A stretch of DNA of 25,613 nt, taken from a virus. Lineage: Duplodnaviria > Caudoviricetes. Location: positions 1 through 25,613 of IMG/VR virus record IMGVR_UViG_3300037188_000028. One strand, 5' to 3'. Of the stretch, positions 3,748 through 6,698 are shown one piece after another. The notes below the pieces were generated by a model. It was not told the origin of the DNA and searched no databases. It was given only the letters and a program-made list of their open reading frames with translations. Position 1 is the stretch's first letter; every line of letters starts with the position of its first letter. Both the position numbers and the translations under genes were made by a program.

Positions 3748-4458
3748 ATGACGAAGCGAATGGTTAAGCTGGCATTTGCGCTTGCCGGCGCGATGGCGGC
3801 TGGCGCTGCGATTGCCGCAGGGCTATCGACCGGCAACGAGTTCTCTACGGCGACACCGGGAAAGACCGTCGTCGGCTTCGTCGAGATGGTCTGGAACGCA
3901 TCGCTCGGCTACGCGCAGCCTGCTTCTTCCGCCAATCCACTTCCGGTGACGCCGGGCGCACCATCGGCGGGCACTTACGTTGGGAACGTTGGCAGTTTTG
4001 ATATCGCCGTTCCCGTCACGCCAACCATTCAGAATGCCTCCTATGTATCGGGCAATGCGGTTGGGGCGCTCCAGACCGTCGCGGTATTTCGTACAGTAGC
4101 GCAGCCGTCCGGCATTCTAAATAACGTGGCCTTGGCATGGAAGGGAACGGAGACAACACCGCTCACGTTCTTTGTATTCGATACCAACCCGACTGGATCC
4201 ACTTGCACCGACAAATCGGCATTCAGCCTCGCTGCGGTGGATATCCCCAAACTGGCACTCCCTCCGTTCACGCTGACCGCCGCCGCTCCATCAGTCGGAA
4301 CTACGACAACGTCCGTGAACTCGTCTTTTACTCCATTAAGCATCAAGAACCAGGACGGCACCGCTTCGGTCAACCTCTATGTCTGCACTGTTTCCGGCGG
4401 AACGTTTACGCCCGCCATTGGCGATCTGAATTATAAAATCAGCGTGGCGCAGGACTGA
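3748..4458 (+). CDS. Hypothetical exported beta-rich protein with Sec-type signal peptide, 236 aa
   Basis: ATG 3748 two nt after upstream stop; N-terminus MTKRMVK-LAFALAGAMAAGA-AIA; two Cys in the mature part. Confidence 0.7.
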   Translation: MTKRMVKLAFALAGAMAAGAAIAAGLSTGNEFSTATPGKTVVGFVEMVWNASLGYAQPASSANPLPVTPGAPSAGTYVGNVGSFDIAVPVTPTIQNASYVSGNAVGALQTVAVFRTVAQPSGILNNVALAWKGTETTPLTFFVFDTNPTGSTCTDKSAFSLAAVDIPKLALPPFTLTAAAPSVGTTTTSVNSSFTPLSIKNQDGTASVNLYVCTVSGGTFTPAIGDLNYKISVAQD

Positions 4459-4652
4459 TGCGACGCCGGGACTTCCTTACAGGGTCAGCGGCGCTGGCAG
4501 CTTTTGCGCGTATGCGGGAAGCGGAGGCACTGGTCGGGCCACGTCGCGCTCTCCTTGGGGGAGCGGGCAAGCCGCCGACGCCTCCGGTCACCCCGGATTT
4601 GGATTTTAGTAAGGCAACGAACTCGCAATACCTCATTCTAGGGATGATCTGA
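4458..4652 (+). CDS. Small protein with twin-arginine (Tat) signal peptide, 64 aa
   Basis: TGATG coupling; MRRRDFL motif, weak h-region TGSAALAAFA, AEA cleavage motif. Confidence 0.7.
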   Translation: MRRRDFLTGSAALAAFARMREAEALVGPRRALLGGAGKPPTPPVTPDLDFSKATNSQYLILGMI

Positions 4653-4653
4653 T

Positions 4654-5352
4654 ATGCCGGGCGCAGTAGGAATCAACGTCATCAAGGATGGCAACGGTAC
4701 CGCAATCGTCGGCGGTGTCAGGATGTTCGACATCAGCGGCACTGGGGCCGGCCCTTGGGTGCCAATGTCGATGCTGACCGACGCATCGGGCAATCAGCTT
4801 ATCGGCCAAAAGACGATGGCCCTGTCGCTGCCGGTGGCTATCGCTAGCGACCAGGGATCGGTCCCGACCACAGCCAAAAGCGTCCTGTGGAATACCGGCA
4901 CCAGCAATAACGGCCTGATCGCAAGCCTGCTTACGCTTGAATCGACCGAACTGAACGCGCTGACCAATACGTCGATCGCGCTGTCGTCGGTTGGTGGTTC
5001 ATCGGGACTGTTCACCAACGCCAATACGGGTGCTGCGATCTATGGCGAGATGTCGCTGACGCTCGGCGCCATCGGTTCGGCGCTTTCCGCCGGGGCGAAT
5101 ATCGCCGGTTGGTTCATCCGTTCGCTGGACAGCGGTTCGACCTTTGAACAAAGCAGCGCCGCGCCGCCGCGCGCGCCAGACTTCATCATTCCACTGCCGG
5201 CCACAACCATCTCGGCTGCGGCGCAGTTTGCGTCCGGTACCATTCGGCTGCCGTCCGTCCAATTCAAGGTGCTGTTGCAGAACAACACCGGGCAAACGCT
5301 TGCCGCGACATCCAACACGCTGAAGCTCGCTCCCATCGCGCAGTTGGATTGA
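4654..5352 (+). CDS. Hypothetical phage protein (probable virion accessory protein)
   Basis: 232-aa ORF with phage-like codon usage; GQKTMALSLPVAIASDQ motif; beta-rich C-terminal domain. Confidence 0.7.
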   Translation: MPGAVGINVIKDGNGTAIVGGVRMFDISGTGAGPWVPMSMLTDASGNQLIGQKTMALSLPVAIASDQGSVPTTAKSVLWNTGTSNNGLIASLLTLESTELNALTNTSIALSSVGGSSGLFTNANTGAAIYGEMSLTLGAIGSALSAGANIAGWFIRSLDSGSTFEQSSAAPPRAPDFIIPLPATTISAAAQFASGTIRLPSVQFKVLLQNNTGQTLAATSNTLKLAPIAQLD

Positions 5353-5356
5353 GCCC

Positions 5357-5824
5357 ATGGCATATTACAGTGCGCTGATCTCGGCGTGGAACGCGGGTAC
5401 TGTCCCCTCCGGGGCCGCTGGCACGGCGCTGACGGGATTATCGACGGCCGCAAAATTGGCGGCCATCAATGGATGGACGATCTCGGGCACAGCCCCAGCC
5501 ACGTTCTTCCTGACCGGCGCGCAGCTTATCAACTGCATCAACTATGCCGAGTTCAAGGCGCTGACCGCGACGCAGCAAGCTAACTTGCTTGCGATGTGTA
5601 ATTGCCCCAGCCTGATCGGTGGAAGCGCGCAGACCGCGCAGATGGCGGCAGGCATGGTACTAGATTACTTCACCAATCATGCAGGACCGACAGTCACGAC
5701 CCTGACCGCGCTGGCGCAGGCCGTGGTGCAGCCATGGTGGCAGGTATCGGTGGCCAACGGCGGCGGCGCGTTGAATGGCCCGGTTGATCAGAATGACCTC
5801 ACGGCAGCGGGCGGGTTGACCTGA
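5357..5824 (+). CDS. Hypothetical phage protein
   Basis: 155-aa Ala-rich ORF, tightly packed, TGATG-coupled to next gene. Confidence 0.7.
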   Translation: MAYYSALISAWNAGTVPSGAAGTALTGLSTAAKLAAINGWTISGTAPATFFLTGAQLINCINYAEFKALTATQQANLLAMCNCPSLIGGSAQTAQMAAGMVLDYFTNHAGPTVTTLTALAQAVVQPWWQVSVANGGGALNGPVDQNDLTAAGGLT

Positions 5825-6573
5825 TGTTGCGGAGCAATCTTCTCGCGTTTCCGGCGGGTATGCAGCCGGGCTTTGATCCGAGTCATGTCGCGGCGCAGGG
5901 AATTAGCACGGGCAACGGATTTTCCGGCATATCAACATCGAATGGCTTCATTAGTTTGCTGACTGGTTTGCCTGGGTCTGATGGGGGCGTTCAAACCAGA
6001 AAACTGGATGGAATCATAGGTCGGGCGAGCAATTATGTGAGTGGCGGATATTCGAATTTCGCCGGCCAATCTTCTGCCGCTCCATCGTCGAGCGGAACAA
6101 TCGCGGGGGTTTTTCGAGTTAATGCACTCAGTAGCATCGGCGTCATATTTTCTTCCACAGGAGCAGGTTCTGGCGGGTATTCGTTGGGGTACAATACGAC
6201 GACGGGCAATCCTTATGTTTTTGCTCAAGGTGCAGGGCAAGCTATTTCAGGACTCGCGATGGCGGCGGGAATACCCTACTTTTTGGCAGCCTCTTTTTCG
6301 CTATCCAAAACAAACTTCGTTTTGGTTAGCCTCAATAATGGTGCCACTCTGACAGATACGCAGGGTACATTTGGCACAGCAGCCGCTTCGCAGAGCGGCA
6401 CCTATGAAGTCGGAGGCAACTCAAATGGCGGGCGTTCGCCAAATGCTATAATTGCCGCTCTAATGTATGCGCCGGGACCGTTGTTGTCTGGCTCACAGCT
6501 TCTCCAGTGGGCGTCCGATCCGTGGTCGTTCTGGTATCCGAAAGAAAAGGATAGTGCACCATGGGCAGCATAA
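5824..6573 (+). CDS. Putative concanavalin A-like / LamG lectin-fold protein
   Basis: Alternating beta-strand pattern rich in G/S/aromatics, ending [12 protein letters not shown]; visibly more AT-rich codons; fold assignment tentative. Confidence 0.5.
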
Positions 6574-6698
6574 GCATCTCACACTGGATCATCGTTGTTG
6601 CCGTCGTAACGCTTCTGTTTGGTCGCAACAAGGTCAGCAGGCTGATGGGCGACGTTGCCAAGGGCATCAAAGACTTCCGCCAAGGGATCTCCGACTAA
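6561..6698 (+). CDS. tatA: Twin-arginine translocase subunit TatA/TatE family, 45 aa (not in ORF track)
   Basis: Translated by hand: [47 protein letters not shown] helix, FG hinge, amphipathic helix with conserved Phe; AAGGA RBS upstream; resembles alphaproteobacterial TatA. Confidence 0.92.

Follow-up and report, generated by a model that had tools for sequence, protein, structure and literature searches.

A candidate export cassette with its own TatA in the late operon of a peat myovirus

Tailed virions are held to be assembled wholly in the cytoplasm. Why, then, should genes with export leaders, together with a gene for TatA of the system for twin-arginine translocation (Tat), be found between the head and tail genes of a tailed phage? 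The question is raised by the virus record IMGVR_UViG_3300037188_000028 of IMG/VR, a 25.6-kb sequence carrying a myovirus late operon (here "the window", meaning the whole stretch of 25,613 nucleotides that was analysed). Six open reading frames (ORFs) of the + strand, which we call A, B, C, D, E and tatA, form a coupled insert between head and tail genes, with successive spacings of 1, -1, 1, 4, -1 and -13 nucleotides (nt) and then 66 nt to gene 6765. A first-pass annotation, made by reading the sequence, had described six tightly coupled genes here, and with gaps of -13 to 4 nt this description holds. The comparisons below give good support to the export of accessory late proteins, through the general secretory (Sec) or the Tat pathway, and the insert likely codes for an accessory spike for host binding, which would be exported to the host periplasm and fixed to the particle at lysis. 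The parts are the following (aa, amino acids; GC3, GC content at third codon positions).

A, 3748-4458, + strand: 236 aa; Sec leader, single jelly-roll, invariant Cys153/Cys213; likely an appendage base
B, 4458-4652, + strand: 64 aa, a linker; twin-arginine leader at residues 1-24, RRALLGG motif at the mature N terminus, Pro linker and LDFSKATNSQY as C-terminal tag; no Cys
C, 4654-5352, + strand: 232 aa; leaderless; xKDGxG hairpin at the N terminus, the predicted socket of the B tag; beta-sandwich core
D, 5357-5824, + strand: 155 aa; leaderless; small partner in the D-C-E module
E, 5824-6573, + strand: 249 aa; leaderless; LamG/concanavalin-like lectin; low GC3 (0.49)
TatA, 6561-6698, + strand: 45 aa; membrane helix and amphipathic helix, no tail; AAGGA upstream
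Fibre-like protein, 19544-22291, + strand: 915 aa; Sec-type leader, 20 Cys in the mature part; a separate member of the same exported class

Export leaders and partner genes

Leaders were called with a home-made heuristic and then checked by eye; its one false call among the core genes of the window was neck gene 2272. Gene A has 62 homologues, and a Sec leader was found in 57 of them by the heuristic and in two more by eye, which bears out the Sec signal originally proposed for 3748. In the alignment, the n/h/c pattern of this leader is conserved and the sequence itself is not, and two cysteines are invariant among the 23 close rows. All 57 leader-bearing homologues have at least two cysteines, versus 2/5 of the leaderless ones, and by eye those two are leader-bearing as well. 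The predicted model of A (predicted local distance difference test, pLDDT, 82.5) resembles jelly-roll capsid folds by Foldseek (E 2e-4); with VIA, the best hit was a chain of the cyanophage Pam1 capsid (root-mean-square deviation 3.3, 114 aligned), at a Z of 7.7 that is middling for what is a common arrangement. By sequence, A matched no PDB chain.

The gene that follows A tells the same story. There are 53 unique A loci. At 32 of them, A bears a leader and the gene behind it could be read; this next gene has a leader by the heuristic at 22, has one by eye at six more, and is an unrelated gene at four. Twin-arginine leaders were recognised by eye at L006, L032, L044 and L053 (labels in L or G are our handles for loci and records). 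Just past the leader, the next genes carry a short B-like motif (TGTRRVLLSG, LGQRAVLLGG, DNHRVLLGG). A leaderless A (0-1 Cys) was followed by an equally leaderless gene (5/5 loci), often with the motif at its very start (GARRALLS, GFRAALLSGG), and the same leaderless arrangement is found in gp47/gp48 of the cultured Caulobacter phage Seuss. It is because of these family-wide leaders, the co-variation of leaders with cysteines and the agreement between partner genes that we consider the export of accessory late proteins, an idea already present in the first-pass annotation, well supported; A and B themselves are very probably exported.

Outside the insert, the 19544 protein has 20 Cys after residue 22, and segments of it match annotated tail fibres; its comparison with PDB sequences gave nothing significant. 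Signal peptides had been suggested for both 19544 and 22288. The first has a Sec-type leader; the second is doubtful, with no basic n-region and a negative call by the heuristic, and was discarded as a clear signal-peptide protein.

The leader of B reads MRRRDFLT-GSAALAAFA-RMREAEA/L, with an RRDFL motif, a short h-region and an AEA site. The mature protein would start with LVGPRRALLGG (xQxVLLGG-like in relatives) and its C-terminal end is LDFSKATNSQYLILGMI. Two narrow DNA scans (44 and 55 loci), together with earlier loci, provided 82 unique ORFs with the LDFSxxxNSQY motif, which lies at most 12 residues from the stop in 80 of them. Baseplate and fibre-adaptor proteins are among the carriers, which include GP46, the Pam3 gp18 plug, Mu gp48, the GP4 gp77 adaptor, and head completion and tail completion proteins. 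The gene after the carrier is usually coupled to it and in 44 cases opens with an xKD hairpin resembling that of C; we infer that the B tag and the C hairpin make up a tag-socket pair. Neither tag nor hairpin profiles gave anything significant against PDB sequences. Along L124-L225, LDFSxxxNSQY appears as a portable tag on many core virion proteins, and small Sec-leader peptides bear a Cys-stapled version of it.

Tag carriers and the genes behind them were also compared for leaders. By the heuristic, both have one in 13 cases and neither in 53, five leaderless carriers precede a Sec-leader gene, and four leader-bearing carriers precede a leaderless one. Inspection by eye gives two of these last four a Sec partner; of the other two, one precedes an unrelated gene and one is the window. 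A Cys pair at the tag was present in 16/17 exported carriers, B being the one without it. B is also the only clear Tat-type carrier among the exported ones and the only one with a leaderless partner, which fits hitch-hiking, i.e., export of the partner on the leader of B. The five leaderless carriers with Sec partners are L075 (gp77 adaptor), L194 (GP46), L201 (plug), L174 and L221; since three of them are recognisable virion proteins, exported parts seem to meet particles built in the cytoplasm.

The lectin module is more variable. C has 174 homologues; the family counts given here refer to the best 120 of them. C is all-beta, as had been anticipated for 4654; for D (5357), which was described in the same terms, the structure matches were unnamed viral look-alikes only. 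Most C homologues are shorter and lack the xKD N-terminal extension. With the C model, Foldseek found no match at E<=0.001 in PDB and only uncharacterised phage proteins in BFVD; PDB sequences gave nothing significant, and neither C nor the L003 fibre had a match in cultured phages. E, first described as lectin-like, is indeed LamG-like by ESM Atlas features (0.98 to PF13385 clusters; template modelling score, TM, 0.70-0.77), with no match to Pfam hidden Markov models. Among 57 viral loci with C, E lies within 1.6 kb in 27 and D in 16, and tblastn found no A, B or TatA in any of them. Leaderless versions of A, C, D and E exist in late regions.

In the C family, the heuristic called leaders in 13/119 homologues, one of the calls being a false positive. 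At least two cysteines are present in 12/13 leader-bearing versus 6/106 leaderless members, and at least two of these six proved leader-bearing on inspection (P0143, twin-arginine, and P0167, mis-started). In a quick tree of 117 rows, leader-bearing C form two supported clades, with three changes of which at least two are forced, i.e., at least two events, or one gain plus losses, not twelve. At 7/7 loci where C bears a Sec leader, a twin-arginine leader is found on the next gene, and at L086, the sole locus with a Tat leader on C, E is leaderless (these are all the leader-bearing C loci found among the 57, several of them being related; L076 is a duplicate of L075). To judge from this pattern, the lectin subunit would have to fold before export and one Tat leader would suffice per complex, and the window would fit it with B as the carrier.

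TatA in the window and in other phages

The product of 6561 had been identified as TatA, and the profiles agree: 57.4 bits with TIGR01411 (cut-off 53.9) and 25.8 with PF02416 (cut-off 21), the TatB profiles being weak (E 0.012 and 0.084). His8, the F20-G21 hinge and Phe39 are in place and invariant in 4/4 aligned sequences, and three other TatAs of 42-45 aa, at 76% identity, end at the same residue. According to a 2026 review, the TatA tail is non-essential (PMC13673990). The gene has a ribosome-binding site of its own and a phage-like GC3 (0.74). TatA of the window seems quite likely to be functional, and the window carries no tatC.

The first two scans for viral tatA found no genuine gene (none in one, a broken piece in the other). 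A broader pattern scan recovered 40 loci, nine of them with tatA (eight over the cut-off), corresponding to eight phages, seven intact; this census is a lower bound. A tblastn search of GenBank phages with TatA gave three Salmonella tatE-like matches. The possibility that the window tatA is a singleton was ruled out by the other phage genes (G131-G134 and others). For three of the seven other intact tatA genes, a twin-arginine gene lies within two genes (G131, G132/133 and G134). In the complete G131, tatA belongs to a run of Cys-rich genes with Sec or Tat leaders, between tail and lysis genes, and comes two genes after the gene of a 1427-aa twin-arginine protein; in G132/133 and G134, the twin-arginine gene directly follows tatA. 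As background, 29/2995 called genes (~1%) pass the strict Tat rule, and finding a Tat-leader gene among the eight neighbours of tatA in 3/7 has a P of about 0.012 (small n, heuristic). All four near-complete tatA phages have a Tat-leader gene somewhere; it is far from tatA in G135 and G137, and none was seen in G136 and G138. G132/133 overlaps the A-module loci L003/L004 at 99.5-99.9%, so that one A-module phage does carry tatA, overlooked as fragments. The notion that an extra TatA accompanies large cargo fits G131 (1427 aa) and does not fit G132 or G134.

Some related observations can be added. TatC was found in one of the nine tatA records, as a full gene among small phage-like genes of a 105-kb record (G136:C1:103030-103641, L266), ~32 kb from its own tatA. 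Two other phages contain broken or truncated pieces of tatA (L064:10001-10072 and G139:C1:12339-12398). In G131, Sec or Tat leaders are present on 9/10 consecutive late genes past the tail genes (L267:14052-19501, L238:133-9582), and the first gene of this run matches PHROG 26190 and a tail family downstream of its leader. Small twin-arginine genes with a common APAIVRASSLM-type leader were found in non-structural regions (L274:1498-1917, L275:1498-1878 in reverse, L085, L001 and L096).

A proposed assembly route and its alternatives

The following route would join these parts. A would leave the cytoplasm unfolded via Sec and form a disulfide, as its leader and Cys pair lead one to expect. B, made directly beside C, would attach through its LDFS..NSQY tag to the hairpin at the N terminus of C, and C would fold with D and E in the cytoplasm before export. 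The twin-arginine leader of B could then carry the folded B-C-D-E complex through the host TatBC, C-D-E as hitch-hikers and with the help of extra TatA, a step that we favour by a narrow margin over its not occurring. Once its leader has been cleaved, B would insert its RRALLGG end into A in the manner of the head fibre of the gene transfer agent RcGTA, which plugs into its base. Finally, the spike would, with fair probability, encounter at lysis the virion built in the cytoplasm and display its LamG lectin for binding to capsule or surface. The phage TatA would likely add export capacity; association of the exported proteins with the virion is a presumed outcome, and virion joining and hitch-hiking are both plausible. 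Taken as a whole, an exported appendage added after lysis, with TatA as a booster, appears to us evenly balanced between right and wrong.

Several facts weigh against this route. The twin-arginine leader announced for the microprotein 4458 has the expected features and yet falls below the curated Tat cut-offs (PF10518, 17.3 bits, <22.7; TIGR01409, 12.8 bits, <16.7), as do resembling leaders in relatives. The fold match of A is middling (Z<8), the tag-hairpin family is poorly conserved (mean column identity of 21%), and most D-C-E modules are wholly leaderless. The five leaderless carriers with Sec partners indicate that partners apparently can meet after lysis, hitch-hiking then being unneeded. 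As for tatA, which was expected to accompany Tat-signal genes, the three phages with such a gene within two genes agree with the expectation and the module records do not: PF02416 was found in 0/31 A records, 0/49 C records (from 50/57 loci) and 0/50 tag records (from 50/99), 33 of them near complete. The complete G006 and G042, free of tatA, do have Tat-leader genes, no Tat neighbour lies within 6 kb of tatA for 4/7 of the other intact genes, and the Tat cargo beside tatA is small in G132 and G134 (169 and 202 aa), the G134 pair being in an early region. It is because 0/130 module records carry tatA that we see it as an optional booster, not as the cassette core; phage tatA appears to be a recurrent but optional helper.

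Assembly could also be split without any hitch-hiking, with A (Sec) and B (Tat) exported alone, C-D-E staying in the cytoplasm, all of them docking at lysis on one another and on the particle, and TatA serving B or other cargo. The five leaderless carriers ahead of Sec-leader genes, the mostly leaderless D-C-E modules and four A partners that use Tat without a separate cargo speak in its favour. We nevertheless rate it as rather unlikely: the 15 other exported tag carriers that have an accessory partner are all paired with an exported one, and each has a Cys-stapled tag; Tat is used by E-position genes of exported modules; and it is not evident why a 40-residue peptide on its own should need Tat or extra TatA. 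More doubtful still is that the exported proteins never join the virion and act on the host envelope or, freed at lysis, serve as soluble lectins, receptor decoys or biofilm factors. The periplasm is indeed where their leaders point, sequence comparisons with A, C, the tag and the hairpin matched no solved virion structure, and small Tat-leader genes also occur in early regions; but the insert sits in a morphogenesis operon, the same tag is found on core virion proteins, leaderless versions of A, C, D and E are encoded in late regions, and 19544 has tail-fibre segments in common. The least probable explanation makes tatA a chance passenger (or a Tat inhibitor) from an insertion-prone junction, unrelated to a module that works without it. 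The 0/130 count, the variable head-tail junction of the related myoviruses L066, L081 and L061 and the broken tatA pieces (L064, G139) would be accommodated, unlike the intact key residues, the ribosome-binding site and GC3 of 0.74, the three 42-45-aa relatives with the same end residue, and the position next to Tat-leader genes in three other phages.

Extending the export-and-docking route beyond the window, one may speculate, with more doubt than confidence, that soil and peat phages run a second, periplasmic assembly line, with Sec for disulfide-bonded parts, Tat for folded lectin complexes, which in the window would mean a whole leaderless complex riding on the 64-residue tagged linker, a TatA of their own widening the bottleneck, and spikes joined at lysis via portable peptide tags.

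Setting and comparison with known systems

The late operon comprises genes for the major head protein, neck, terminator, sheath, tube, tape measure, baseplate, fibres and lysis. The insert had been placed between head-closure and tail-terminator genes. Downstream, 6765 is the neck terminator (PF23961); upstream, head closure was a matter of position, and 3342 matches PHROG 1912 "head protein". No promoter or terminator signals above chance were detected in the window. A peat metagenome run contains the window sequence, and a second peat run has near-identical pieces at low depth, with tatA uncovered; there was no RNA run among the listed sequencing runs containing it. The best-scoring model for the window TatA is PRK00720 (82.6 bits), which we take to be an alphaproteobacterial-type TatA model, and the A family is present in two alphaproteobacterial genomes; for these two reasons, the host is likely an alphaproteobacterium. 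An A locus also lies in Bradyrhizobium erythrophlei GAS478.

Other genes of the window deserve mention. A membrane acyltransferase-like gene (22512-23582, - strand; MdoC E 1.7e-4) between fibre and lysis genes is a possible surface-modifying accessory gene. An inserted domain of ~70 aa (PHROG 21413/38233) has copies in the terminator (6765-7493), sheath (7565-9550) and baseplate J (15055-16923) genes, and a NUMOD3 homing-endonuclease-like gene (16947-17813) is inserted between baseplate J and DUF2612. In the lysis region, a Lipase_3 gene (24841-25506) follows a lysozyme-like gene; in L123, a similar gene is close to the A locus.

The conservation of Sec and Tat leaders, Cys pairs gained or lost with them and a phage-borne TatA point to virion parts that mature in the periplasm and are joined at lysis. 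If true, this would add a step to phage morphogenesis, account for the many fibre-like genes with a secreted look in uncultured soil phages, turn dsb and tat of the host into determinants of phage host range, and provide a short tag-socket pair usable for display. New elements would be the sharing of labour between Sec and Tat inside one module, the LDFS..NSQY tag and a testable hitch-hiker case. We found no paper on phage TatA or on exported tailed-phage fibres, in a coverage without most subscription journals and preprint supplements; in the Tat review, the four mentions of "phage" concern other matters.

Exported tailed-phage proteins are known, among them the antiholin RI (PMC8385771) and the sortase substrates and outer membrane proteins of huge phages (bioRxiv 10.64898/2026.10.24.761521); the preprint does not mention Tat, although its tables could list Tat parts. 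Like spanins and signal or signal-arrest-release (SAR) endolysins, these use host export via cleavable leaders, but they act on lysis or the cell surface and none is a fibre or spike. A second TatA for particular substrates, working with the host TatBC, has precedents in TatA/TatE and in the substrate-linked paralogue tatA2 of Campylobacter jejuni (PMC4148689). The window TatA has the full membrane and amphipathic helices and keeps residues 8 and 39, which C. jejuni TatA2 lacks; it differs from TatA/TatE in being phage-encoded, tail-less and part of a late operon. In the proposed hitch-hiking, a single twin-arginine leader would serve a complex with leaderless partners. Hydrogenase subunits are reportedly exported in this way by Tat, as Rodrigue et al. 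are said to have found in 1999; here the leader sits on a 40-residue linker with a docking tag, and the cargo would be a cofactor-free, predicted virion part.

Closest in arrangement is Caulobacter phage Seuss (KT001914), where gp47, a homologue of A (35% over 75 aa, E 6e-4), precedes a fibre-like gene, the pair standing where the late operon ends; unlike the proteins of the window, gp47/gp48 are leaderless hypothetical proteins with no Cys. The head spike of RcGTA consists of the base Rcc01079 and the fibre Rcc01080, which plugs into the base and binds the capsule (PMC7296036). In both systems a small base gene, here for a predicted jelly-roll, precedes a fibre gene whose product has, or here would have, a short N-terminal hydrophobic peptide for plugging the base. 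The RcGTA plug is IALGLGLGL; here it would be RRALLGG-like and bared only once the leader is removed, and mature B has no (I/L)G repeat at its N terminus. A is also larger and has a Cys pair, there are export leaders, and the lectin is on separate genes joined by the tag. A and its neighbour would parallel the RcGTA base and fibre without being of the same family, and at most would work like them.

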